Source: an uncultured Candidatus Saccharibacteria bacterium
Lineage (GTDB): Bacteria; Patescibacteriota; Dojkabacteria; GCA-002793355
Direction of reading: 5' to 3'
DNA: 64,000 bases
NCBI GenBank assembly: GCA_964525295.1
Contig: CAZGEO010000002.1
Location: forward strand, 129,230 to 193,229
Part shown: piece by piece, positions 2,647-50,666 of the stretch
Layout: every line of letters begins with the position of its first letter
Numbering within the stretch: the stretch's first letter is position 1
Translations under genes and position numbers: made by a program
Notes under the pieces: model-generated
The model's input: only the letters and a program-made list of their open reading frames with translations
The model's database searches: none
What the model was told of the DNA's origin: nothing

Positions 2647-5598
2647 ATGCCTGCGCCAAAAGGTCAAGAGTCAATGAGTGCATTGGGGTCATTATATGAC
2701 CTATTGTTCGCGGTCGCAGAAGATACATCAAAAAAGAAAGGGCCTGCAGCAGTTCCTGATCTCGTGACTTCGCAGATTAGCGATGGCGTTGCAGAAGGTT
2801 TAGTTGGTTTAGGCTCTGCACTCGCGGGAATTTCGGGCGAAAAAGGTGTAGAAAGTTTGGTTGGTTATGAATTAAAGGATTTATTCAACTCGTCAGCCGG
2901 AACTGTACAAGGTGAGTACAAAAATTTGTTTGGTACTGGAGATGGAAATCCCTATGTTTTTGCTACTCCAACAGCTGATGATCCTGACAAGAAAGCTTAC
3001 AATAAACAGGGTTTTTATGTTTTTAAAGATGAGGAAGGTGCGGAATTAGGGCGTCTTGACGCTTCTGGTGGTGTAACTGCAGAAGTTAATGCGGGAATGG
3101 TAAACAGTATATTGTTGAATCCAGCAGGTCTTGCGAATAGCATTGTTACTGATTGGTGGACAAAACGTCAGCAAGCCCAAATGATTGAAACGATTTCAGC
3201 AATTGTATCAGGTCAAACAGATCCTTCGCGCTTTTTGATGGATTCTGTCAATTTGGCTGATGATGTCGCACTTGATAATACTAATGCGCAAATTGCTGGA
3301 AACTACGTAAAGAATAGAAAGCTAGGTATAGATAAAGATGTTGCAGCAGCGATCGCCCAGGTAGAAGCTGCAGATTCAGCACGTGTAGCTGCCTTAGCTC
3401 GTGATAATCGTGGATACACAAAAGATGACTTGAGCCGATATACACAAGCTATAGATACTGCAGTTGCAATGTTTGCTGGAATCGACAAAGAAGAAGAGCG
3501 TTCAGAATTTGTTAATCTGTACAATTCTAGAGTCAAACAAGAATTGTTGAATAGATATAATCAAATGTCTGCCAATTTACCCCAATTTCAGGCAGTCAAC
3601 TCATTTGATGAGCTCTTTCTAGCAGCCAATAGAGGGCAATTACTTTCTATGCTTGATAACAATACATTATTTAATCGAGCATATGGTGGTCGTAGTCTTG
3701 GTGATGAAATGCAAAATGCATTTATGGATGTTTTTGGGCACTTAGGTACAGACAATACGTTATCTCCTCAGATGCGCGCGCATTTTGCTGGATTGTGGAA
3801 CAAAGTTGGGAATGACGAAACTTTTGGAAATTTGCTACGTTCAATGTCAACAGCTGTTAATCCAGAAGTTAAGAATGCGAGACCATTGATGCGTATGGGA
3901 ATTTCGGAGTTATCTGAGAAGATTAAGAATAACGCTGAAGGGGTGAAAAGTTTCTTACAATCACGAGTATTACAGAGTAACGAAAAACGATTAGAACGCG
4001 GTGATCAATGGAAAGATTTTAACGATTGGCGAGCGAAAACTGCCAATACCCTAAGTTACGCATACTTACGTTGGCAAACGGTTCCCTCAATTAATAAAAT
4101 ATTTACGCCAATCGGCCTATTAACGGGGCAAAGTTGGTATGATCTTTCAAACTGGGCTGGCGGTCCTGTTGGGTATGGTTTTGCTAAAACTTCTCCAGCT
4201 GAGTCTTTGAATATTGAATCTCCTAAAGTTTTTGGTGCTTATGGTTGGAATAAATTGCTTTTAATGCCAAGTAAAGCGAATGGGTTCCAAAAATTTGCGT
4301 ACACGATGGGAACATTTAGTCCATTGGGTGCTGCACAAGGATTCTTTAATGGCGATTTATTCCAAAGAATGGTTTGGATTGGTTCAGGATTTGGAAAGAA
4401 TATTGGTGACCAAACTAAGTGGGGTTGGATGGCAAGAGTTGGCCACGGTTTTTTAAACAATAGCGTATATCAAGGAATGGTTGGTGGCGTAAATTTTGGT
4501 CGTTATGTGTTTAACTTGCCTTCAATGATGATCAATCAATCGATGATGTTTATTCAGAAGGAGATTATTGATAAACTGCGCCAAAAAATGGCAGATGCGG
4601 CGGCGGCAGCATTTAGAAAATTAGTTGGCCAGAAAATTGCCGATTGGATAATTGCAGCAATTGGTGTAGTTACTGGTGGAATCATTAATGCGATTCAAAT
4701 TACTTATAAAGCATTGAATTATTTAACACTTGGTTTACTGGATAAAGTTACCGAATTTACATTGAAGCTTGCAATGCAAATTGTGATTGGTGTCATTTTG
4801 GGGATTTTTGTCGTAATTCCAGCGATTGCTGGAGGTGTAAATAGCGGTGATTCCAACGAAGTCGCTGCAACCCTCGGTTCTGGTGGCTTGCGTGCTCCTG
4901 ATCCTGATTGGGAACCGATTCTAGTAGATGCTGCGAATTTGGAGCTTGAACCACCTCCTGATCCTGGAGATGTTCCAACTGATGATCCGATAGATATGCC
5001 CGGTGCTAAAGGTATCGATGTGAGCCATTGGAACGGTGATATTAATTGGCAAACAGTTAAGAAATCAGGGCTTGTAGAGTTCGCAATTATTAAGGCCTCT
5101 GAAGGAACGGGGTTTGTTGATCATAGATTTGTAAAGAATTGTCAAAGTGCCAAATCTGTAGGTATTAAACGTTCGGCTTATCACTTCTTTCATGGTGATA
5201 TGAACGGAAAAGATCAAGCGAATCATTTCCTCAATACAATTAAGAAATGTGGCTCCGCTATGGATTTTGAAGTTACCATTGATGTTGAATTACCTTATAA
5301 AAGACCACCTCCAGATGTTAGTGTTTCAACGAAGAATTTGAAATTAATGCTTGATACGTTAGAGGCAGCACTTGGGTATAAGCCGATGATCTATACCAGT
5401 GATGTAATGTGGAAAGCAATGACAGTTCAACCAGGATGGGGGGGAAATGAGTATCCATTATGGGTTGCTGCGTATAATAATGTAGGTCCAGGTAAATTGC
5501 CAAAAGGTTGGACAGAATGGGTAATTTGGCAGTATAGCAAGAAAGGTAAGATCCCAGGAATTCCTTCTTCAGTTGACTTAAACATTTGGAACGATTAG
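2647..5598 (+). CDS. large membrane-anchored protein with C-terminal GH25 muramidase (lysozyme) domain
   Basis: 983 aa; C-terminus contains GIDVSHWNGDINWQTVKKSGLVEFAIIKASEG...SAYHFF...DVE, the hallmark GH25 (Lyz2/Cpl-1 type) signature; two TM helices around aa 660-740; Pro/Asp-rich linker before the hydrolase. Confidence 0.75.
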   Translation: MPAPKGQESMSALGSLYDLLFAVAEDTSKKKGPAAVPDLVTSQISDGVAEGLVGLGSALAGISGEKGVESLVGYELKDLFNSSAGTVQGEYKNLFGTGDGNPYVFATPTADDPDKKAYNKQGFYVFKDEEGAELGRLDASGGVTAEVNAGMVNSILLNPAGLANSIVTDWWTKRQQAQMIETISAIVSGQTDPSRFLMDSVNLADDVALDNTNAQIAGNYVKNRKLGIDKDVAAAIAQVEAADSARVAALARDNRGYTKDDLSRYTQAIDTAVAMFAGIDKEEERSEFVNLYNSRVKQELLNRYNQMSANLPQFQAVNSFDELFLAANRGQLLSMLDNNTLFNRAYGGRSLGDEMQNAFMDVFGHLGTDNTLSPQMRAHFAGLWNKVGNDETFGNLLRSMSTAVNPEVKNARPLMRMGISELSEKIKNNAEGVKSFLQSRVLQSNEKRLERGDQWKDFNDWRAKTANTLSYAYLRWQTVPSINKIFTPIGLLTGQSWYDLSNWAGGPVGYGFAKTSPAESLNIESPKVFGAYGWNKLLLMPSKANGFQKFAYTMGTFSPLGAAQGFFNGDLFQRMVWIGSGFGKNIGDQTKWGWMARVGHGFLNNSVYQGMVGGVNFGRYVFNLPSMMINQSMMFIQKEIIDKLRQKMADAAAAAFRKLVGQKIADWIIAAIGVVTGGIINAIQITYKALNYLTLGLLDKVTEFTLKLAMQIVIGVILGIFVVIPAIAGGVNSGDSNEVAATLGSGGLRAPDPDWEPILVDAANLELEPPPDPGDVPTDDPIDMPGAKGIDVSHWNGDINWQTVKKSGLVEFAIIKASEGTGFVDHRFVKNCQSAKSVGIKRSAYHFFHGDMNGKDQANHFLNTIKKCGSAMDFEVTIDVELPYKRPPPDVSVSTKNLKLMLDTLEAALGYKPMIYTSDVMWKAMTVQPGWGGNEYPLWVAAYNNVGPGKLPKGWTEWVIWQYSKKGKIPGIPSSVDLNIWND

Positions 5599-21887: not shown

Positions 21888-22436
21888 ATGGATCAGAAGA
21901 ACAACAACAACAATAATAACCGAGGACCACGCCAAAACAATGGTCGACGTCCACCATATGAGGAGAAGAAGTACAATTCAGAGTTAATTGCCCTTCGACG
22001 TGTTGCAAAAGCAACCGCAGGTGCAAAAAGACTCCGCTTTAGTGCAGTAGTTATTATTGGTGATAAAAAAGGTAAAGTCGGAATTGCAATGGGTAAGGGA
22101 TTAGATCCTCAAGAAGCAATGCAAAAAGCAATCAGAAAAGCCGAAGGCTCAATGATTACTATTCCATTGTCTGCAGAAGGAAAATCAGTGCCTCACCGTG
22201 TTGATGCAGAATATAAGGCAGCAGGAGTATTAATCAAACCAGCTCCAATCGGTACAGGTGTCGTTGCTGGTGGATCAATCCGAAAAGTATTAGAAATGGC
22301 CGGTATTGAAAATGTCGTTGCAAAGCGTATGGGAACACCAAATTCGTTAACAAACGCATATTGCACAATTGTGGCACTCTCTAAGTTGAAACAAGTGAAG
22401 AATGGAAATCGTTCTGAAAAAGTTAGTACTAAATAA
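21888..22436 (+). CDS. rpsE: 30S ribosomal protein S5 (with N-terminal poly-Asn low-complexity extension)
   Basis: 182 aa; S5 dsRBD and C-terminal domains; N-terminal NNNNNNN run encoded by an AAC/AAT triplet repeat. Confidence 0.9.
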   Translation: MDQKNNNNNNNRGPRQNNGRRPPYEEKKYNSELIALRRVAKATAGAKRLRFSAVVIIGDKKGKVGIAMGKGLDPQEAMQKAIRKAEGSMITIPLSAEGKSVPHRVDAEYKAAGVLIKPAPIGTGVVAGGSIRKVLEMAGIENVVAKRMGTPNSLTNAYCTIVALSKLKQVKNGNRSEKVSTK

Positions 22437-22836
22437 GCAGAAGCGACGAGGCCGAGGAATCGGTTCAGGCGTTGGTGGTCACACTGTTGGCTATGGTCAA
22501 AAAGGTCAGGGCTCACGTGGTGCACACAAAGTCGGTATTGCTGCAGAAGGTGGTAACATTCCATTGTTCCGTAAATTACCAGTACAGAGTGGTTTTCGCT
22601 CAGTAACTGCAAAGCCAGCAACGGTAACTCTTTCATGGTTAAATGTTCATACGAAAGAAGGCAGCGTTGTTGATGCAGCATTCTTGAAAGCTGAAAAAGT
22701 TCTTGCAAAAGTAACTGATGCTGCAAAGATTGTTGGAATTGATAAACTTGACCACAAAATCACGGTTAAAGGTCTCAAAGTTTCAGCAGGTGCTAAAAAG
22801 GCAATTGAAGAAGCTGGTGGGAACGTGATAGACTAG
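22402..22836 (+). CDS. rplO: 50S ribosomal protein L15
   Basis: RRGRGIGSG...GQKG pattern; follows rpsE directly with no L30 gene; start overlaps rpsE by 35 nt, alternative start possible. Confidence 0.85.
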   Translation: MEIVLKKLVLNKQKRRGRGIGSGVGGHTVGYGQKGQGSRGAHKVGIAAEGGNIPLFRKLPVQSGFRSVTAKPATVTLSWLNVHTKEGSVVDAAFLKAEKVLAKVTDAAKIVGIDKLDHKITVKGLKVSAGAKKAIEEAGGNVID

Positions 22837-37480: not shown

Positions 37481-37718
37481 GAAATAGGGTGCATGAGCAG
37501 GAGCTTTGGTCCTTTGGGCTAAAGAGGAAAGTCCCGCCTCACATAAGTCACTAGCGAAAGCTAGGTAGGAGAAATCTTACGGATAGGGTCACAGAAATAT
37601 ACCCAGAAATGGGGTGAAATGCCGAACTGGCTATAGATAACCCCTGGCAGTGAGCAAGTCTAAGACGCTAAGATAAATTCCTGCGTAACAGAAGCGGGCT
37701 TACGGTGCGCCCTATTTC
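37481..37718 (+). ncRNA. rnpB: RNase P RNA, reduced bacterial type (~238 nt)
   Basis: P4 5' strand GAGGAAAGTCCCGCCTC; GGGGTGAAATGCC; 3' element TAACAGAAGCGGGCTTACGGT; 12-bp P1 pairing between GAAATAGGGTGC (37481-) and GCGCCCTATTTC (-37718). Confidence 0.75.
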
Positions 37719-41446: not shown

Positions 41447-42124
41447 TTACCTATTAAAGCAGGCTTTATATAATTCTTCAGCAAATTCTTCCTCTTTCCA
41501 ATTTTCCAGCCAGTGTTTGAATGAATCGTATAGTGGCGATTCACCAGTTGTAATTTTTTGACAATAAATCATTTCTTCGATTGTAGAAGAGAGTTGAATC
41601 GCCGGTTTTTTGGTGAATTTATTGAAATATTTTGCTTCATTCGAGAAAAGTATAGCTGTCCGATAGATAAGTAATAGTAAATTGTCGGCGAGTGAAGTGG
41701 TGGGTAAGTGCCAAACTTCAGAAAAATAAGGATTATCGCGCAAATGTTCAAAAACTTTCGTACTCAATCTCTCGTCAGTTCTTAATAACTCGAAGATTTC
41801 AGTCATAGTAGGTAAAGGTTTCTGCATTAATGCATTTGATTCTTGCGCATTGACACACCACAACCAAGGAAAGTCGCTTTCAAAATCTGATTTTCTCTCT
41901 CTGTTGTAAATTGAAATTGCTTTATTAAAATGCGGTATATTGTTCACGAGTGCTATCTCAATGGCTGGTAACTGTTCGCTATCTGAAAATTTTTCAGATA
42001 AATATGTTTTAATCTGCGATAACATAGCGGAATCGTTCATATCTAAGTGGTAGCTCGATACTTGTGAAGAAATCTGTTGAATCTTGTGCGCCTTCTTTTG
42101 TATATTGGGAGCTGTGTGCAGCAA
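41447..42124 (-). CDS. hypothetical protein
   Basis: 225 aa ORF; 5' end overlaps the 3' end of the PIG-L gene in another frame, so the true start is probably an internal Met. Confidence 0.3.
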   Translation of the reverse strand: MLHTAPNIQKKAHKIQQISSQVSSYHLDMNDSAMLSQIKTYLSEKFSDSEQLPAIEIALVNNIPHFNKAISIYNRERKSDFESDFPWLWCVNAQESNALMQKPLPTMTEIFELLRTDERLSTKVFEHLRDNPYFSEVWHLPTTSLADNLLLLIYRTAILFSNEAKYFNKFTKKPAIQLSSTIEEMIYCQKITTGESPLYDSFKHWLENWKEEEFAEELYKACFNR

Positions 42125-42746
42125 TTGCGTTTGTTCTCGTTTCGGTAAAACCAGTTACATCGATGGCAATTGTTTCTGAATGATTGTAGTAATCGACGAA
42201 TAGGAACTCTGTTACTGTATGTGACTCAACGCCGGGTTCGGCAAGCTGTTCAGGAAAGAAGAGAATATCACGACTATAGGGATATGCTGCATCAAGTGCT
42301 GATTTCCCAGTATTGCGATGATCTCGATGATTAACCCAGTTTACGTCTTTATCAAAATTTATAATTGCGTCTTCGGGGTTATGAGTAATTAGAATATCTG
42401 GCTTGAAAAGTCTGATTTGCCTGACAATTTTACCGATGGTGTTTAGTGAGTTATCGACCTCACCGTCGCTAATGTCGAGAAAAATATCGTTTTCCGGTTT
42501 TATTCCGAGGGCCTTCATAGCATTGGTATTTTCGACGGTTCGCTGTTCTATGAGAGCTGCCTCTGAAATGTTTTCTTGGCGTGAGCCTTTGTTACCATAG
42601 GTCATTTTAACGATACGGACGTCTTTTTTGTCTGCAATTAGTCTGGCTATTGTTGCTCCAGCATAAATTTCGGCGTCATCTGGATGTGCCATGACAAACA
42701 GGATGCGCTGTTTGTTTCCGAAAATTTTTTCATAGGAATCAGTCAT
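42009..42746 (-). CDS. PIG-L/LmbE family N-acetylglucosaminyl deacetylase
   Basis: 245 aa; AHPDDAEIYAGATIARL zinc-binding motif of the LmbE/PIG-L family. Confidence 0.7.
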   Translation of the reverse strand: MTDSYEKIFGNKQRILFVMAHPDDAEIYAGATIARLIADKKDVRIVKMTYGNKGSRQENISEAALIEQRTVENTNAMKALGIKPENDIFLDISDGEVDNSLNTIGKIVRQIRLFKPDILITHNPEDAIINFDKDVNWVNHRDHRNTGKSALDAAYPYSRDILFFPEQLAEPGVESHTVTEFLFVDYYNHSETIAIDVTGFTETRTNAIAAHSSQYTKEGAQDSTDFFTSIELPLRYERFRYVIAD

Positions 42747-44021: not shown

Positions 44022-45470
44022 TTATTTCAGATACACTTTGATTTGGTTAGAGTAATTGTCACAGCCACCGCCGGTGTAGCGACATACTCGCACATAGTAG
44101 TAACCTTCACCCTTGAAAGCTGATAATTCCCCAAATGAACGAACAGAACTTGATGATAAGTATTGGTTTTTATCACCTCCATCATCTCGGCCAGGGTAGG
44201 TTGGCCCACTATTTTTTGACCAAACTACTTTGAAACCGTTTGGTGTATCAAGGTTGCTAACTGTCCATGCAACTGAGGTTGCGCCGGTACTCTTGATGCA
44301 GAGTTTGAAACCTGTACACGCATTGGTTGGTGGCTTAGTTGGTGCTGGGGTAACTGGGGGTGGTGGGGATTCGCGTGTTACTGTGAGCTCAACTTTTGCC
44401 ATGTTGCCTGCTTTGTCTAATGCTTTGACGACGAAGTTGTTGGTACCAAGCTTTAGGTCAAATTCTTTTGAGAATTGCCCTTCATTGTTTTCAACTTTTA
44501 CGCCGTTAATCCAGACATAGGCTTCTTTTTCTGTTTTTCCAGAGATTTTTGCCGTCCAGTTTGTTGTTTTGCTGTTGTTTTGTGGTTCAGTAACAGTAAG
44601 TTCTGGAGCAGTTGTGTCTGCAAAAATGCCTAAATCTTCTTTGTATTCTTTTGAAGATTCATCAACTGTTTTATTCCAATCAACAAAGGTATCATTTTTC
44701 AGATCTTCTTCTTTTACAATCGGCTGAACGATTTTTTCTGTTGTTGGCGCTTTGGTATCAACTAAATAATATTTCTTACCTTCATCTACAACAATTTCCT
44801 TACCTTGATCAATAACATTTACTTTGTTGGCAAAAACTTCGACACCCTTTTTTGAGGAATTCTCGGTGACTCGGTAGGCTGTTCCCATCGCTTTATAACT
44901 AACGCCATTTGCTGAAACAATAAATTCACGAGTTTCAGATTTTGAAACGCGAGCATAGATTTCTCCTCGAGTATTTGTTACTACGATATTTCGTGGATCA
45001 AGTGAAGTCAGAATAATTTCTGAATCGCTATTCAATCGAATTGCGCTCCCGTCGTCTAGGTTTACAATAGCTTTACTATTTTGAGCGACACGAATGACAT
45101 CTCCTTGCTGTAATTTTGTATCAAGATTTGCGGTAGTCCATTTACCATCACGTTGATATTCAACCGTGCCTTCGGCAAATGCTATTTCTAGTCCGAGATT
45201 TTTATTAATTATTTTTTCTGAAATAAATAATGAGCCAACCACAAAAATGGTTGCTGCTACAATAACTGCCCCGCCAAGAAGCATGAACCTCTTGAGGAAG
45301 GTTTGAGTTGGTGACATATTTTTTGTCGTTATATTAATGTAACGATCAAGCACCTTTTGTCTGAGCTCTTCCTTGAACGCAGAATCTCGCCCTGAACGGG
45401 TTTTCCTGATTACTGCTTTTTTGAAGAATCCGTGCGCAGCGGTTTCTTCCGGAAGTGGTGAGTTGACCAT
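44022..45470 (-). CDS. FecR-like anti-sigma factor with single TM and C-terminal Ig/fibronectin-like extracytoplasmic domains
   Basis: 482 aa; cytoplasmic N-terminus, one TM helix (LLGGAVIVAATIFVVGSLFI), FecR-like beta-rich region, Pro-rich linker, Cys-containing C-terminal domain; directly downstream of ECF sigma. Confidence 0.5.
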   Translation of the reverse strand: MVNSPLPEETAAHGFFKKAVIRKTRSGRDSAFKEELRQKVLDRYINITTKNMSPTQTFLKRFMLLGGAVIVAATIFVVGSLFISEKIINKNLGLEIAFAEGTVEYQRDGKWTTANLDTKLQQGDVIRVAQNSKAIVNLDDGSAIRLNSDSEIILTSLDPRNIVVTNTRGEIYARVSKSETREFIVSANGVSYKAMGTAYRVTENSSKKGVEVFANKVNVIDQGKEIVVDEGKKYYLVDTKAPTTEKIVQPIVKEEDLKNDTFVDWNKTVDESSKEYKEDLGIFADTTAPELTVTEPQNNSKTTNWTAKISGKTEKEAYVWINGVKVENNEGQFSKEFDLKLGTNNFVVKALDKAGNMAKVELTVTRESPPPPVTPAPTKPPTNACTGFKLCIKSTGATSVAWTVSNLDTPNGFKVVWSKNSGPTYPGRDDGGDKNQYLSSSSVRSFGELSAFKGEGYYYVRVCRYTGGGCDNYSNQIKVYLK

Positions 45471-45471
45471 C

Positions 45472-46071
45472 TTACTTAATAAAACGATTATCTAAGCTAA
45501 ATATGTCAGTACTTGGATAGCGTTCAAGAAATTTCTTACGAAAATCTTGTAATGCGCGGTATAGAAGTACAGAAACTTGAGTCGGTTTAATTTGCATAAT
45601 TGAAGCAATTTCGGGATTGTCCATTTCTTCAAAAAATTTTAAGGAAAGAATATGTTGGTATCTTTCATGAAGTAGTGTAAGAACTGTAAAAACTTTGATT
45701 CTGTGCTCTTGACTTATTGCAGGATCTTCAACATCTACAGCGATTTCTGGTAATTCTTCGGCATCTTCTACACTTAAAAAGAGATGCACTTTTTGCTTTT
45801 TGAGGTAATCAATGATTGCATTGTGCGCAGTTCGGTAAAGCCAACTGCCAAAGCGAATACCTTTGCGTGTATCAAAATTTTTAATTGCTTCAACCGCTTT
45901 GAGAAAAACTATGCTAGTGACATCTTCGGCCGACTCGCGATTTGGCAAACGATTTCTGCAATACGAAAAGATTGATTGAAAATATAAATCGTACAATTTT
46001 TCGAATGCAACTATATCTTTTTTTGCTTGTTCAATAAGATGTAATTCTTCTTGAACTGAGAGTTCAATCAT
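45472..46071 (-). CDS. ECF-type RNA polymerase sigma factor
   Basis: 199 aa; sigma-70 region 2 (FEKLYDLYFQSIFSYC...WLYRTAHNAIID) and region 4 HTH (NPEIASIMQIKPTQVSVLLYRAL). Confidence 0.8.
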   Translation of the reverse strand: MIELSVQEELHLIEQAKKDIVAFEKLYDLYFQSIFSYCRNRLPNRESAEDVTSIVFLKAVEAIKNFDTRKGIRFGSWLYRTAHNAIIDYLKKQKVHLFLSVEDAEELPEIAVDVEDPAISQEHRIKVFTVLTLLHERYQHILSLKFFEEMDNPEIASIMQIKPTQVSVLLYRALQDFRKKFLERYPSTDIFSLDNRFIK

Positions 46072-46129: not shown

Positions 46130-47617
46130 CTACCATTGGTAATAATAATTCAATTCGTTCTCAATTAATGGAGGTTCACCAATCGCAAACAGAATTTCAT
46201 TCGCATAGGTGATAACTTCGGCTGTTCTCGCAAATGTCATCATAATGAAGTGATTCTGATATTTTTTATAAAATCCTTGCCCGTAAGCGCGATCAAGTTC
46301 AGTCTCAAGCTTTTTCGCATCTTTCGTGTTGTAAATGGAAATCCAAGTTGTTTCAGGAATTTTTTTCATCATCTGTCTGACAATAAATGTAGGATAGGCA
46401 TAAGAAGAGTAGTCACCACGTTCAATGACCGCAAGGTGAACAGTTTTTAACGTAAGGTGTTGAGTCATCGCTTCTTCAAAGAAAGATGGAAGAGCATTAC
46501 CCGATTGACTTGACTGATAGTGCAGTTGCTCGTGAGTAATTACCTCGGCCATGACTTTTGGCTTGCTTGCAAGTTCAGGAAGAAAGTTAATACTGATTGT
46601 ACTTGGTGGGCTAAATCTGCCCCATTGAATGTTTACAATGGTTTTTTGCTGTAAGGCTTCTTTTAGTAAAGTACGGCCTTTTGTGATGGCATTGCGAGTT
46701 TGGGAGATGCTGGTTTCAAGGCTAGTTTGTGCGTTTCTAGTATAGCTACCACTTCCTCTTGCGATTTCACTTTTTACAAGAGAAAGTTCATTTTCAAGAA
46801 TGCCAAGGTTATTTTCTAACTTTGAAATATAAGAACGCACGTCTGCAATGTATGCATTCAGTTCATCTTGTGCTCCTTTTTCGAAGTCTGCGGGTGCCAA
46901 TACAATAAATACTGGTTTAATATTTTTTTGCGGTAATTTAAGGCAAGACATTAAGGAAGTGCCCACTTCAGGGAGAATAGTTTGTCCCATTGCAAGTGTT
47001 AATGATTGCAAATAGATAGAATTATTATATGCAAAAATCGGGTAATTTCGCTCAGAAATGGTTAACTTTTTCGTTGAATCATCTAATGCTTTCGCAAATA
47101 TAATTTCTGTATAAAAGTTCTCTGTGTTAAGTCGTGTGCGCTCCTTTTCTATGACTAACGCTCGCTCAAGTTCGCGCACATTAAACTTATACAGCTGACA
47201 GCTTCGTTGCGTTTGCGCAAGGATTTTAATGGTCGCGATATCAGTAACAATCGTGTTCGGCAGATCTTTTTCAATAGTTGCCACATTTTCGCGCACATTA
47301 AGACCTGCATAATAAGCTACAGCAGCGAAGGCAAAAGAGATTCCCACAAATAAAAGAAAGAACGAAAATAAAAGATTCTTTAAGATTTCTGCAAAAATTT
47401 TTGTTGCATTGAGAAAATCCCAATTACGTTTTGGAACAAATATAAGGAAAGTTGCGATAATTATTACATAGGTAATGATTGAGGTCGCTAACCATATCGG
47501 GAAAGTCGCAAGTGATAAATTTGTTGGAAGAAGGTAAAGAAAAGTGAAAAATGCGACTATTACATTTAATACAAGAATAGCAATAACTTGAAGAGGCGAT
47601 CGAGATTGTTCTTGCAT
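46130..47617 (-). CDS. membrane protein with extracytoplasmic domain containing HExxH motif (putative metallopeptidase-like)
   Basis: 495 aa; 3-4 N-terminal TM helices; HEQLH near C-terminus; first gene of apparent operon with ECF sigma and anti-sigma. Confidence 0.35.
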   Translation of the reverse strand: MQEQSRSPLQVIAILVLNVIVAFFTFLYLLPTNLSLATFPIWLATSIITYVIIIATFLIFVPKRNWDFLNATKIFAEILKNLLFSFFLLFVGISFAFAAVAYYAGLNVRENVATIEKDLPNTIVTDIATIKILAQTQRSCQLYKFNVRELERALVIEKERTRLNTENFYTEIIFAKALDDSTKKLTISERNYPIFAYNNSIYLQSLTLAMGQTILPEVGTSLMSCLKLPQKNIKPVFIVLAPADFEKGAQDELNAYIADVRSYISKLENNLGILENELSLVKSEIARGSGSYTRNAQTSLETSISQTRNAITKGRTLLKEALQQKTIVNIQWGRFSPPSTISINFLPELASKPKVMAEVITHEQLHYQSSQSGNALPSFFEEAMTQHLTLKTVHLAVIERGDYSSYAYPTFIVRQMMKKIPETTWISIYNTKDAKKLETELDRAYGQGFYKKYQNHFIMMTFARTAEVITYANEILFAIGEPPLIENELNYYYQW

Positions 47618-48492
47618 TGAGTATAGTACGATTTTTTCATTGTATTGTAAACCGAATGAAAGATGACAATTTGATAGACATTCATGTTACAATTATCGAT
47701 AAAATGCAAATACTGAATTATATTAAGATTCTGAAGCCTCGTTTTTCGGTTGTTACGCACCTTTCATTTTTGCTCGGTGTCTTCGCACTATACTCCAGTG
47801 AGAGAATTCAAGTTCCTTTGTGGTGGTTATTATGTATAATTTTCTACCTGTTTTACGGAGCAATTTACATTATGAATGATTTGTTTGATTACGAAGGTGA
47901 CAAGGCAGATCCTTTATTGAGACTGCGCCCTATTCCTGCTGGTATTGTTCCCTATCATCATGCGGTAATTGAAATGTTGGTATTAATAACAGTCTCGTTG
48001 TTGATTGCATTTTTCGTTCAATTTGAATTCTTTATCGCATTACTTATTTTGTTGGTCATGAATATTATTTATTCTGGCTTTCTCAAAAAAGTAGCGTATC
48101 TTGATTTCTTGTTTATGGCGTTTTCGCACCCAATGAAATTTGTGACTGGTGGGTTAGTATTTGGCAGTTTAACTTTCAGCTTTCCTTTGATTCCGGTGTT
48201 AATAGCGATGTATGCTGTTTCAATAATTGTTCACGCAGATAAGCAGTATGTTCGCTTGTTACAAGGCAGAAAACGAAAGTTTCTCTTTGGCGAATATACG
48301 ATTCCAGGATTAACGATTTGTAGCGTCATTGCAATAACTCTACTGATATCACAATTGTTTTTCATTTCTGGTTGGCTACAAATCGTATTTGCTTTGCTTG
48401 CAGTTGTAGCGATTGTTATCGCTCTCGGCAAGCCGTTGAGTAGAAGAGTACGAAGATTTCAGCAAAATGTTGAAATGGAGGTAAGCAAGTAA
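47617..48492 (+). CDS. UbiA-family aromatic/isoprenoid prenyltransferase (polyprenyl-phosphate acceptor type)
   Basis: 291 aa; 8-9 TM helices; first Asp-rich motif NDLFDYEGD (NDxxDxxxD) in the first cytoplasmic loop; real start probably internal (MQILNY...). Confidence 0.7.
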   Translation: MSIVRFFHCIVNRMKDDNLIDIHVTIIDKMQILNYIKILKPRFSVVTHLSFLLGVFALYSSERIQVPLWWLLCIIFYLFYGAIYIMNDLFDYEGDKADPLLRLRPIPAGIVPYHHAVIEMLVLITVSLLIAFFVQFEFFIALLILLVMNIIYSGFLKKVAYLDFLFMAFSHPMKFVTGGLVFGSLTFSFPLIPVLIAMYAVSIIVHADKQYVRLLQGRKRKFLFGEYTIPGLTICSVIAITLLISQLFFISGWLQIVFALLAVVAIVIALGKPLSRRVRRFQQNVEMEVSK

Positions 48493-49103
48493 TGAAAGAA
48501 TTTTTGAATAAAATTGGCTTATTTCGTTTGCACGAACTACGTGCAATGAAAGACAAAATACTTGACAATCAAAAATTGAAGAATCTATCGTTGAAATTAT
48601 ATGCCTTTGGTCTTCGTGCGAATTATATAACTCTTTTTAATGCTGTAATTGGTTTTGTTGCAATATACTTCTTATTTGAAAACACACTGGTTTTTGCGTT
48701 GTTATTAATTTTGAATAGTATTCTAGATGCTGTTGATGGGTTATTTGCACGTTATACGAATTCATCATCTAAACTTGGCGACAAGTTGGATCATTTTTTT
48801 GATATTGTTTTTCCATTTTTAGCGTTGGTGAAATCATATTTCTATTATACGAATGGTTGGGTTCTTGCATTAATCATCTTCTTTGTGTTCGAGGCAGTAT
48901 ATTTATGGTCACAAAAACAAATTGAACGATGGATTCCTACAAAAACTGCAATGATTTTCTTCGCCTTTGGGTTAAATGAACTCGGGCTTTTGATTCAAGG
49001 AATTTACGAACCCGTAACCTTTATTTTGTTTCTGGTAAATTACTGGAACGCACCAGTTATCGACCCACCGGGAACAAAAGTTGAGCAAAATATACAAAAA
49101 TGA
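48492..49103 (+). CDS. CDP-alcohol phosphatidyltransferase family protein
   Basis: 203 aa; exact D-G-x2-A-R-x8-G-x3-D-x3-D motif (DAVDGLFARYTNSSSKLGDKLDHFFD). Confidence 0.85.
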   Translation: MKEFLNKIGLFRLHELRAMKDKILDNQKLKNLSLKLYAFGLRANYITLFNAVIGFVAIYFLFENTLVFALLLILNSILDAVDGLFARYTNSSSKLGDKLDHFFDIVFPFLALVKSYFYYTNGWVLALIIFFVFEAVYLWSQKQIERWIPTKTAMIFFAFGLNELGLLIQGIYEPVTFILFLVNYWNAPVIDPPGTKVEQNIQK

Positions 49104-49140
49104 GAGTTTTATCGGTTATAACATTATTGAATAAGGCAAT

Positions 49141-49653
49141 ATGTCACAATTCATTCTAGATCTTTTAGTTATTGTATTACCTGCTGGATTTGCCAATATG
49201 GTGCCCCCATTTGCTATGAAGGTTTTGCCAAAGTTTACAGCTCCTGCAGATTTTGGCTTAGAATTTCGAGGTCGAAGGATTTTAGGTGAGCACAAAACAA
49301 TTCGGGGATTTCTGTTTGGAACTCTCTTTGCTGGACTATTGTTTCAGCTACTTGATTATTCGGGCATTAACTCACTCGGTTTACCTTGGTTTTATGGCTA
49401 TGTTGTTGGGTTTTCAGCTTTAGTGGGTGATTCGATAAAAAGTTTCGTTAAACGGCAGCTTGATATTTCTCCAGGTAAAGCATGGTTCCCGTTTGATCAG
49501 ATTGATTGGATAATCGCCTCGCTTTTGATTATGCCATTCTTTGGCATAACTTACGTGTGGTATTACGTCGCATTTCTAGGTGTTGGTTTTGGTGGTCATT
49601 TGCTCGCCAAAGTGCTTGGTTTTTATTTAGGCCTAAACGATACGAAGATTTGA
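49141..49653 (+). CDS. small 5-TM membrane protein, CTP-transferase-like (CarS/DUF46 or CdsA-like; tentative)
   Basis: 170 aa, five hydrophobic helices, basic patch SIKSFVKRQLDI before the last helices, reminiscent of the K-R...K-D segment of CdsA/CarS; size matches CarS family. Confidence 0.35.
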   Translation: MSQFILDLLVIVLPAGFANMVPPFAMKVLPKFTAPADFGLEFRGRRILGEHKTIRGFLFGTLFAGLLFQLLDYSGINSLGLPWFYGYVVGFSALVGDSIKSFVKRQLDISPGKAWFPFDQIDWIIASLLIMPFFGITYVWYYVAFLGVGFGGHLLAKVLGFYLGLNDTKI

Positions 49654-49663
49654 AGGCTTCGTT

Positions 49664-50056
49664 TTATTCCTGCGTTGGTTTTGTTTCGTAAACCTTAACA
49701 GATGCTTCGCCACGCTTTTTAATGAGGTAGTTACCAACGGTGTAGCCTTTAATTGCGTCAATCTTTTTTATTTTTCCGGTTGAAAGTTTTACGACAGCCT
49801 TTAATCTTTTTTCGACTGAACCTCCGTCGTCATCTGAAACATAAACTTGTTCTTCTTTGATTTCAATGATTTCACCTTCCCATTGTTCAGTCATTGTTTT
49901 TATTAAAAAAGCAAGGCTAATTATCGCAGCAATGCCAACACCATAGAGAACATCTGGGGTTTCTTGCCCGACAAATGCGTAAACGACAATACCAATGATG
50001 AGCCAGATAACAGCCCACCAGATTAATGATTTAGTCATATTTGGTTGTAACTCCAA
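49664..50056 (-). CDS. membrane protein, unknown function
   Basis: 130 aa, two N-terminal TM helices plus soluble C-terminus. Confidence 0.35.
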   Translation of the reverse strand: MELQPNMTKSLIWWAVIWLIIGIVVYAFVGQETPDVLYGVGIAAIISLAFLIKTMTEQWEGEIIEIKEEQVYVSDDDGGSVEKRLKAVVKLSTGKIKKIDAIKGYTVGNYLIKKRGEASVKVYETKPTQE

Positions 50057-50093: not shown

Positions 50094-50666
50094 ATGGCGA
50101 CAGTTTATGCGACTTTTGGTGTGCTTCTTGCATTTATTGCGTACATCCCATATCTGCAGGATACTTTCTCAGGAAAAACGAAGCCACATTTTTTTAGCTG
50201 GTTCCTTTGGTCGGTTGTGTCGTTTATTGCAGGAGGTATTCAAATTAGTGATGGTGCAGGCGTCGGCGCATTAACTAATCTTGCAATGGGTTTTATCTGT
50301 TTGGTCATTGCTACACGAAGTTTACTAAATGGTACGAAAGATATTACTCGATTTGACATCTTTTCGGCAATTATGGCTTTGGTAGCTCTGATCTTGTGGC
50401 TACTGATAAAACAGCCACTTTGGTCAATGATACTTATTGTTATTACTGATTTCTTGTCATTCATTCCAACGATACGTAAATCTTGGTATAAACCTGAACA
50501 AGAAACGCTAGCAACGTGGGTGATTAGTTGTACCAGGCAAATTTTGACTATTTTGGCAATGCAAAATTTTACCGTCATTACCGTGCTTTATCCTGCGTAT
50601 AGTTTGTTAGTGAACTCATTGTTTGTATCAATGCTAATTATGAGAAGGAGTCAATTAAAGAAGTGA
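50094..50666 (+). CDS. polytopic membrane protein, unknown function
   Basis: 190 aa, ~6 TM helices. Confidence 0.4.
   Translation: MATVYATFGVLLAFIAYIPYLQDTFSGKTKPHFFSWFLWSVVSFIAGGIQISDGAGVGALTNLAMGFICLVIATRSLLNGTKDITRFDIFSAIMALVALILWLLIKQPLWSMILIVITDFLSFIPTIRKSWYKPEQETLATWVISCTRQILTILAMQNFTVITVLYPAYSLLVNSLFVSMLIMRRSQLKK

Follow-up and report, generated by a model that had tools for sequence, protein, structure and literature searches.

Locus layout and gene starts

The window, by which is meant the whole stretch of 64,000 nucleotides analysed here, contains a module of three membrane-enzyme genes that was followed up with profile, structure and gene-neighbourhood comparisons. The list of open reading frames (ORFs) places all three on the plus strand between 47617 and 49653, confirming the three same-strand genes that a first-pass annotation of the sequence had located there. 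They encode a UbiA-superfamily protein, a CDP-alcohol phosphatidyltransferase and a CarS-family protein. The conserved functional unit is the pair formed by CarS and the CDP-alcohol transferase, and the link to UbiA is lineage-specific. The features of the module are as follows.

47656-48492 (+): UbiA-superfamily intramembrane transferase, 278 aa from ATG 47656 (PF01040)
47875-47901 (+): first Asp-rich motif, NDLFDYEGD, of the UbiA protein (motif check)
48232-48246 (+): HADKQ segment of the UbiA protein, in place of the second Asp-rich motif (family alignment and hidden Markov model alignments)
48479-48494 (+): GGAGG ribosome-binding site and TAATG stop/start overlap at the UbiA/transferase junction (sequence read directly)
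48492-49103 (+): CDP-alcohol phosphatidyltransferase, 203 aa (PF01066)
48735-48803 (+): catalytic signature DG-x2-AR-x8-G-x3-D-x3-D of the transferase (motif check)
49141-49653 (+): CarS-family CTP:lipid-phosphate cytidylyltransferase, 170 aa, five transmembrane helices (PF01864)
49291-49308, 49426-49455 and 49492-49506 (+): CarS segments HKTIRG, GDSIKSFVKR and FDQID, respectively (motif check)

The mechanical UbiA ORF opens at TTG 47617, which had initially been taken as the beginning of the module. This start is not credible because its first base doubles as part of the start codon of a divergent 495-aa gene, and gene callers start the UbiA gene at ATG 47656. Homologues identified in an exhaustive phmmer search begin to align at about residue 17-25 only, and ATG 47704, which gives a protein of 262 aa, is therefore the likely start. 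The stop codon of the UbiA gene and the start codon of the transferase gene share the TAATG at 48490-48494, with GGAGG 8 bases upstream; the UbiA gene is thus translationally coupled to the transferase gene, in this genome only. A gap of 37 nt separates the transferase gene from the CarS gene, so that the first-pass description of starts and stops touching or overlapping throughout holds for the former junction and not for the latter. Scans for promoters and terminators returned sites no more numerous than in shuffled sequence.

The CarS-family protein and the CDP-alcohol phosphatidyltransferase

The 170-aa protein scored 60.4 bits against PF01864 (gathering score 22) and 97.6 bits against the NCBIfam CarS model NF003114, the latter being below the equivalog cut-off of 148, while the score against the CdsA-type family PF01148 was 16.6 bits and below the cut-off. 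Residues 5-166 could be aligned with Aeropyrum pernix CarS (ApCarS, PDB ID: 5GUF) with an E-value of 1.3e-12 and approximately 30% identity, the segments HKTIRG, GDSIKSFVKR and FDQID matching GKTIEG, GDMAGSFVKR and LDQLD of the archaeal structure. All 14 residues that are invariant in the alignment of CarS relatives (alignment A1) are present in the window protein. A model generated using AlphaFold2 (predicted local distance difference test score, pLDDT, of 94) displays five helices, and its best PDB match in Foldseek was 5GUF, with an E-value of 1.2e-5, template modelling (TM) scores of 0.68/0.73 and a root-mean-square deviation of 3.4 Å; the Thermotoga CdsA structure (TmCdsA) superposed with a TM score of 0.49 only. 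Profiles, alignment and model together assign the protein to the CarS family, below equivalog level, and this is the best-supported of the three family calls.

The transferase scored 54.2 bits against PF01066 (gathering score 22) and carries the catalytic signature DGLFARYTNSSSKLGDKLDHFFD at residues 82-104, with an intact D-G-x2-A-R-x8-G-x3-D-x3-D. The best subfamily model was NF040950 (archaetidylinositol-phosphate synthase) at 58 bits, which does not reach the cut-off of 180, and the cut-offs of pssA (43.7 versus 107) and NF045883 (25.3 versus 170) were missed as well. A word-indexed homologue search with the transferase matched only the protein itself, indicating that it is very divergent, and a profile constructed from CarS-adjacent transferases (see below) gave 105.8 bits. 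The protein is classed from its sequence as a CDP-alcohol phosphatidyltransferase, the alcohol not being fixed by any subfamily model.

The first-pass annotation had recognised a perfect D-G-x2-A-R...G-x3-D-x3-D motif and the CDP-alcohol phosphatidyltransferase family, and had noted that a protein of 170 aa with five transmembrane segments fits CarS/DUF46, both of which are borne out by the scores above. It had, however, described the CarS assignment as the weak link, whereas this proved to be the firmest (Pfam, 5GUF alignment and fold), and its alternative of a CdsA-type CTP-transferase is contradicted by the PF01148 score and by the poor superposition of TmCdsA.

CarS neighbourhoods in related genomes

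CarS relatives were collected by scanning one genome per species, which yielded at least 557 relatives, and the best 80 loci were analysed. According to their labels these are mostly from the Candidate Phyla Radiation (CPR), with six archaeal loci (four of them Woesearchaeota) and approximately eleven from other bacteria. ORFs were called and clustered and profiles were built, and each count gives the loci in which the gene concerned lies no more than 3 kb from CarS. A CDP-alcohol transferase gene was found in 61 of the 80 loci, compared with about one expected on a rough estimate, and the pairing of CarS and transferase is therefore beyond chance. No UbiA gene was found within this distance in any of the 80 loci (0/80). 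The other recurrent neighbours were counted as follows.

PHP-like phosphoesterase: 39/80 loci
SIS protein: 23/80 loci
DUF1361: 22/80 loci
PIG-L deacetylase: 14/80 loci
SDR epimerase: 9/80 loci
DAGK_cat lipid kinase: 7/80 loci (profile)
PgpA: 4/80 loci

Several arrangements indicate the company in which CarS is found. Operons of the Collierbacteria type with the order CarS-PgsA-PgpA-SDR were seen at four loci (L003, L005, L007 and L091), and at L091 the transferase reaches the pgsA equivalog cut-off (110.4 versus 109.1) and PgpA scores 100.8 bits. The order in Saccharibacteria is transferase-PHP-CarS, with a transferase that resembles phosphatidylinositol-phosphate (PIP) synthase (approximately 95 bits). 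In two loci of the Levybacteria type, L055 and L075, CarS is immediately preceded by the gene for a YegS-type lipid kinase, and EEP phosphoesterase genes flank CarS in L004 (5219-6040, minus strand), L090 (3-185, minus strand), L030 (2119-3012) and L051 (6488-7381). L090 is the closest relative of the window, its CarS being 62% identical, and has upstream of CarS the EEP gene instead of the UbiA and transferase genes. GlmS also recurs near CPR CarS, together with the sugar-modifying SDR epimerase, PIG-L and SIS genes.

The PHP-like protein of the Saccharibacteria order is a metallophosphoesterase of about 217 aa and of CehA-McbA type, encoded in L011 (5304-5966) and in 38 other loci (for example L014, L019 and L039), typically between the PIP-synthase-like transferase and CarS. 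It is a candidate phosphatidylinositol-phosphate phosphatase, a step for which, to our knowledge, neither bacteria nor archaea have a firmly assigned gene. In Dojkabacteria-type loci (L043, 5031-5975; L018, 4192-5214; and four others), the gene immediately ahead of CarS encodes a conserved 310-340-aa protein that matched no Pfam or NCBIfam model.

The nearest CarS relatives are from Collierbacteria, Woesebacteria and Shapirobacteria. In a rough neighbour-joining tree, calculated without support values and to be read as a hint only, the window CarS falls with Microgenomates-type sequences, and Woesearchaeota sequences are interspersed among those of CPR. The loci L004, L005, L007, L012, L013, L017, L023, L027, L028, L035 and L061 include metagenome-assembled genomes labelled Gammaproteobacteria, Pseudomonadales, Bdellovibrionales or Limnocylindrales. 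Some of these oddly labelled loci have a CPR-like gene order (L005 and L007 as in Collierbacteria L003, L013 as in Saccharibacteria, L035 and L061 as in L037), and at least those labels look unreliable.

The UbiA-like protein

The UbiA protein scored 65.8 bits against PF01040 (cut-off 34.2). A word-indexed search returned three matches only, indicating that this protein too is very divergent, and the exhaustive phmmer search gave 168 matches below 1e-10, the nearest with 25-37% identity, which define a family of about 260 aa. This family keeps the first motif, Y..ND..D...D, and an N..YS..LKK segment (alignment A2). In UbiA enzymes already known, the first Asp-rich motif is where Mg2+ and diphosphate bind. 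The reference for the ligand residues of the family was Rv3806c, in which N73 and D77 hold Mg2+ and the diphosphate of phosphoribosyl diphosphate (PRPP), while the acceptor, decaprenyl phosphate, is bound through its phosphate by K191 (PMC10994848). NDLFDYEGD of the window protein aligns with N73, D77 and D81 of Rv3806c. At the second motif, alignment with 8j8j and 6m31 placed HADKQYVRLLQGR (KQYVRLLQGR) of the window protein opposite KDFEDMEGD in the digeranylgeranylglyceryl phosphate (DGGGP) synthase of M. jannaschii (MjDGGGPS) and GKRYAEL in Rv3806c. The second Asp-rich motif is thus absent and the HADKQ segment has no acidic cluster; its Lys is nearly invariant in the ~260-aa family and aligns with K191 of Rv3806c.

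Profile comparisons gave the same ordering. Against structures in the PDB, the family profile scored 104.6 bits with Rv3806c (8j8j), 66.1 with MjDGGGPS (6m31) and 50.8 with AfUbiA. Among NCBIfam models, those for decaprenyl-phosphate and polyprenyl-phosphate phosphoribosyltransferases (DPPRS/PPPRS) and the HAD-UbiA model PRK08238 were matched by 24 of 24 family members (best E-value 4e-31), compared with 15/24 and 11/24 for the two DGGGP synthase models. The window protein itself missed every cut-off, both for the DGGGP synthase models (NF009521, 39.7 versus 296; NF009522, 30.8 versus 353) and for the DPPRS/PPPRS models (55.5 versus 234, 53.7 versus 207 and 52.2 versus 474) and PRK08238 (67 versus 351). 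The ligand residues of Rv3806c that are kept are Y70, N73, D77, D81, R90, Y138, K143 and K191, whereas Q135 is replaced by N, K87 by L (with an R adjacent) and Y157 by H, and R22 and K28 could not be aligned. The loop-IV R..E motif described for PPPRS (PMC11127046) reads Q..R in the window protein. An AlphaFold2 model (pLDDT 89.5) has the UbiA fold, and Foldseek returned TM scores of 0.65-0.73 for Rv3806c, DGGGP synthase and AfUbiA alike; since the fold comparison does not separate the subfamilies, the distinction between Rv3806c and DGGGP synthase rests on motifs and profile scores.

By these measures the window protein is placed in a phosphoribosyltransferase-like branch and is not predicted to be a DGGGP synthase. 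It resembles Rv3806c-type enzymes, for which a lipid phosphate is the acceptor of a diphosphate-activated polar group, and its membership in the phosphoribosyltransferases proper is not established, given the missed cut-offs, the Q..R in loop IV and the changes at K87 and Y157. None of the partners of Rv3806c/PPPRS-type enzymes that were looked for in the window (a PAP2 or HAD 5-phosphate phosphatase, a flippase, a GT-C transferase and an epimerase) was present. The first-pass annotation was right about the UbiA family and its NDxxDxxxD motif. Its headline, a trio of DGGGP synthase, CarS and archaetidyl-head-group synthase, is not sustained by the second-motif sequence (KQYVRLLQGR instead of KDFEDMEGD), the profile scores (104.6 versus 66.1 bits) or the 0/80 CarS loci with UbiA. 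The clustering with MenA/UbiA quinone enzymes that it had considered as a way to be wrong was not observed either: a quinone role was rejected, TIGR01474 scoring 36.5 bits only and no MenA model being matched. Heme o synthase and chlorophyll synthase were likewise rejected, their models scoring low or not at all.

From the UbiA family, five homologue contexts were compared, which hold UbiA paralogues, PAP2 (L086 and L087), EEP and NUDIX genes and in which no CarS or CDP-alcohol transferase gene was found. An EEP gene follows the ~260-aa UbiA homologue in L085 (6813-7580) and L087 (5816-6583). One EEP subfamily (E=2e-23) includes both the protein encoded after UbiA in L085 and the one whose gene precedes CarS divergently in L004; this is the only indirect link between the ~260-aa UbiA family and CarS; the EEP protein may be a lipid phosphodiesterase that joins the two gene sets. 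A metagenome scan for relatives of the UbiA subgroup, based on one alignment, gave no confirmed relative.

Host and surroundings of the module

The window is bacterial, as shown by a class A RNase P RNA at 37485-37718. At 234 nt this RNA still spans the full 367-position model, with a score of 101.4 against a gathering score of 100, and is strongly reduced. In the ribosomal protein operon at 21888-22836, the S5 gene runs directly into the L15 gene with an overlap and no L30 gene between them. Loss of L30 is typical of CPR, and the S5-L15 arrangement fits an origin in CPR/Patescibacteria; the host is a bacterium of this type. The G+C content of the window is 36-44%.

Lipid synthesis genes were searched for in the 64-kb window and in the next 10 kb, approximately 74 kb in total. 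Geranylgeranylglyceryl phosphate synthase (GGGPS), glycerol-1-phosphate dehydrogenase (G1PDH), polyprenyl synthase, CdsA, PlsC and PlsY were all absent from this range, which also yielded no further gene of a lipid synthesis family. About 5 kb upstream of the module lies one further gene of possible relevance:

42009-42746 (-): PIG-L family deacetylase, BshB1/MshB-like (Pfam PIG-L)

Its product scored 227 bits with the profile built from PIG-L proteins encoded next to CarS and 83.5 bits with the NCBIfam BshB1 model, below the cut-off, and it is of the same family as the PIG-L protein encoded beside CarS in Saccharibacteria. Its membership in the same lipid or glycolipid pathway is possible and unproven.

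The minus strand at 44022-46071, just upstream of the lipid genes and divergent from them, encodes a sigma factor of the ECF type (Sigma70_r2/r4_2) together with a protein of 482 aa that has FecR and Glucodextran_B domains. Downstream of CarS, a 130-aa membrane-anchored protein (49664-50056, minus strand) adjoins a 190-aa polytopic membrane protein (50094-50666, plus strand) whose two halves resemble each other (IPYLQDTFSGKTKP and IPTIRKSWYKPEQ) and which matched no Pfam or NCBIfam model. Both are kept directly downstream of CarS in L090 (approximately 65% identity) and in no other fetched locus. They were left out of the module, being conserved only in this nearest relative. A Glyco_hydro_25 (lysozyme) domain is present in a protein of 983 aa encoded at 2647-5598, with SH3-domain and G5/3D-domain proteins nearby, and together these may represent the cell-wall-degrading equipment of an epibiont.

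Published background on the lipid substrate

Archaeal CarS favours geranylgeranyl substrates over phosphatidic acid, and AfCarS fails to complement an E. coli cdsA mutant (PMC4244643, PMC9385802). CPR/Patescibacteria do not synthesise lipids themselves. In a CPR-rich small-cell fraction, the intact polar lipids were all acylglycerols and the CPR genomes were without complete lipid synthesis; CPR are thought to obtain lipids from their neighbours (PMC7242380), by mechanisms that a 2024 review of Patescibacteria calls unidentified (PMC11665869). For a Saccharibacterium, Starr et al. suggested that head groups are interconverted via a 'putative phosphatidate cytidylyltransferase' (PMC6031116). 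CDP-archaeol is reportedly accepted by PgsA-type enzymes, and one Parcubacteria genome has been reported to contain GGGPS and DGGGP synthase homologues (PMC7852524). No paper describing CarS in CPR, Patescibacteria or Saccharibacteria was found in the searchable literature, and NCBI already labels one homologue 'CDP-archaeol synthase [Candidatus Parcubacteria bacterium]'.

Interpretation: a proposed head-group replacement on salvaged lipids

With confidence that we would put at the midpoint, the module is interpreted as serving lipid salvage and head-group replacement, CarS taking the role of CdsA, and not the synthesis of archaeal ether lipids. In a first step, suggested by the gene partners in relatives, a phosphodiesterase or a kinase (diacylglycerol to phosphatidic acid) would yield a lipid phosphate. 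The CarS-family enzyme would then use CTP to turn this membrane lipid phosphate into a CDP-activated lipid, from which the CDP-alcohol phosphatidyltransferase would displace CMP with a polar alcohol (in relatives, glycerol-3-phosphate or inositol-phosphate). Finally, again in relatives, a phosphatase would complete the head group, PgsA and PgpA giving phosphatidylglycerol and the PIP-synthase-like transferase with the PHP-like phosphoesterase giving phosphatidylinositol. EEP phosphoesterases and PIG-L deacetylase would be further members of the full head-group exchange route in relatives, and the UbiA-like enzyme probably works on the same pool of lipid phosphates. The lipid phosphate is most likely phosphatidic acid from scavenged host lipids, because the genome is of CPR type with no lipid synthesis genes seen in or near the window and because acyl lipids have been reported for CPR. 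A scavenging or remodelling pathway had been mentioned at first pass as a secondary suggestion, and it is this suggestion that the acylglycerols in CPR and the bacterial PgsA, PgpA and kinase partners favour. The families, motifs, folds, synteny and operon structure are observed, and from them the lipid substrate, the alcohol, the replacement of CdsA and the UbiA reaction are inferred.

Several points weigh against this interpretation. Characterised archaeal CarS enzymes disfavour phosphatidic acid and AfCarS does not rescue the cdsA mutant, so that the use of acyl lipids would require a change in specificity; confidence is held at the level given because the step in CdsA's role is inferred and conflicts with this specificity. 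The absence of CdsA, GGGPS, G1PDH and isoprenoid genes covers approximately 74 kb only. Partners of bacterial type do not fix the lipid core, since PgsA-type enzymes reportedly take CDP-archaeol (PMC7852524), and the lipidomics come from other CPR lineages and not from this organism (PMC7242380). The best model of the window transferase is archaeal (NF040950), though weakly, and a profile search found no kinase, PgpA or PHP partner in the window.

A broader version of the same interpretation is put forward more tentatively. DPANN archaea and CPR bacteria may have exchanged CarS, which is regarded as an archaeal enzyme with a part in upholding the lipid divide, and in CPR it would be a general CDP-lipid synthase that replaces CdsA on scavenged ester lipids. 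Its partners, so far unrecognised, would be the YegS-type kinase, the EEP and PHP phosphoesterases and the ~260-aa UbiA-like transferase without the second Asp-rich motif, the last adding a new lipid-phosphate reaction here.

Alternative interpretations

Three other explanations were considered. The strongest of them, which we still regard as rather unlikely, is that the UbiA gene has an unrelated function and simply came to lie ahead of CarS and the transferase in this lineage. Reduced genomes commonly have compact operons of mixed function, UbiA is missing both from the 80 other CarS loci and from the locus of the closest relative, and the five UbiA-homologue contexts contain neither CarS nor the transferase. 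However, the TAATG overlap and a good ribosome-binding site imply co-expression, L004 has divergently upstream of CarS a member of the same EEP subfamily as is encoded after the UbiA homologue in L085 and L087, L090 has an EEP gene in the corresponding place, and a lipid phosphate is a plausible substrate for each of the three enzymes.

It is less probable, and in our view doubtful, that the three enzymes share polyprenyl phosphate, or some other carrier that is not a glycerolipid, as their substrate and produce an envelope glycoconjugate or a teichoic-acid-like precursor, UbiA making polyprenyl-phosphate-ribose-5-phosphate from PRPP and CarS with the transferase making a polyprenyl-phospho-alcohol. 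The best fit of the UbiA family to DPPRS/PPPRS models, the retention of most donor and acceptor residues of Rv3806c, the PAP2 phosphatases and UbiA paralogues that adjoin UbiA homologues, much as Rv3806c lies beside Rv3807c, and the sugar-modifying genes (SDR epimerase, PIG-L, GlmS and SIS) near CPR CarS are all consistent with such a carrier. Equivalog-level PgsA, PgpA and diacylglycerol-kinase-type partners nevertheless indicate glycerophospholipids, and we know of no CarS-family cytidylyltransferase that uses polyprenyl phosphate. Genes for a GT-C glycosyltransferase, a flippase or PAP2 are moreover missing from the window, every DPPRS cut-off was missed widely, and the UbiA protein has Q and R for the loop-IV R..E of PPPRS and L and H at the equivalents of K87 and Y157 of Rv3806c.

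A true archaeal-type pathway to isoprenoid ether phospholipids in a bacterium, with UbiA as DGGGP synthase, CarS producing CDP-archaeol and the transferase an archaetidyl-inositol or -serine type lipid, is the least probable of the three: the CarS family is otherwise archaeal with geranylgeranyl-selective characterised members, the UbiA gene is coupled in translation to the transferase gene, the best NCBIfam model of the transferase is archaetidylinositol-phosphate synthase, the UbiA family profile still matches MjDGGGPS at 66 bits and GGGPS and DGGGP synthase homologues are reported from one Parcubacteria genome (PMC7852524), but the UbiA protein is without the second Asp-rich motif needed for a prenyl-diphosphate donor, phosphoribosyltransferase-type models outscore those for DGGGP synthase (NF009521 reaching 39.7 bits against a cut-off of 296), UbiA is beside CarS in 0/80 other loci and not in the nearest relative L090, approximately 74 kb contain no GGGPS, G1PDH or polyprenyl synthase, and only acylglycerols were found in CPR-rich fractions (PMC7242380).

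For the preferred interpretation, salvage with head-group replacement, the protein families and, in general terms, the idea of scavenging were known already. The pairing of a bacterial CarS with bacterial head-group enzymes seems undescribed, as does a ~260-aa UbiA family without the second Asp-rich motif. The CarS and transferase module, which is kept in many CPR and DPANN genomes, offers with its lipid kinases and phosphatases a concrete gene set by which ultrasmall symbionts could give host lipids new head groups. Either CPR CarS has switched substrate or these bacteria handle isoprenoid lipids, and each outcome would bear on the debate about the lipid divide.

Comparison with known systems

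Like MjDGGGPS (PDB ID: 6M31), the UbiA protein has a UbiA fold with the first Asp-rich motif and a comparable helix at the N-terminus, and its family profile reaches 66 bits with that enzyme; it differs in having no second Asp-rich motif (KDFEDMEGD) and no GGGPS gene nearby. The closer likeness is to Rv3806c DPPRS and to PPPRS of three-component pentofuranose systems, which are the best structural and profile match of the ~260-aa family, share NDxxDxxxD and have a Lys at K191 in place of the second Asp-rich motif. However, the window protein is shorter (approximately 262 aa), misses the cut-offs (55.5 versus 234), has Q..R in loop IV, L for K87 and H for Y157, and is encoded without a PAP2, epimerase or GT-C partner.

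The CarS protein is like ApCarS and AfCarS in its PF01864 match, size, five-helix topology, full-length alignment and KT-x-x-G, GD-x3-SF-x-KR and DQ-x-D segments, whereas it occurs in a bacterium, has about 30% identity and scores below the equivalog cut-off (97.6 versus 148). In the relatives of the window, moreover, the partners of CarS are bacterial PgsA, PgpA and lipid kinases and not GGGPS and DGGGP synthase, and the substrate of the window CarS is probably not DGGGP. The pathway as a whole is most readily set beside bacterial CdsA with PgsA/PgpA or PIP synthase, in which the chemistry and its order are the same, CTP activation of a lipid phosphate being followed by a CDP-alcohol phosphatidyltransferase, and in related CPR loci CarS is accompanied by true PgsA and PgpA. 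The difference is that the activating enzyme comes from the CarS branch, and that its substrate would be salvaged and not made de novo.

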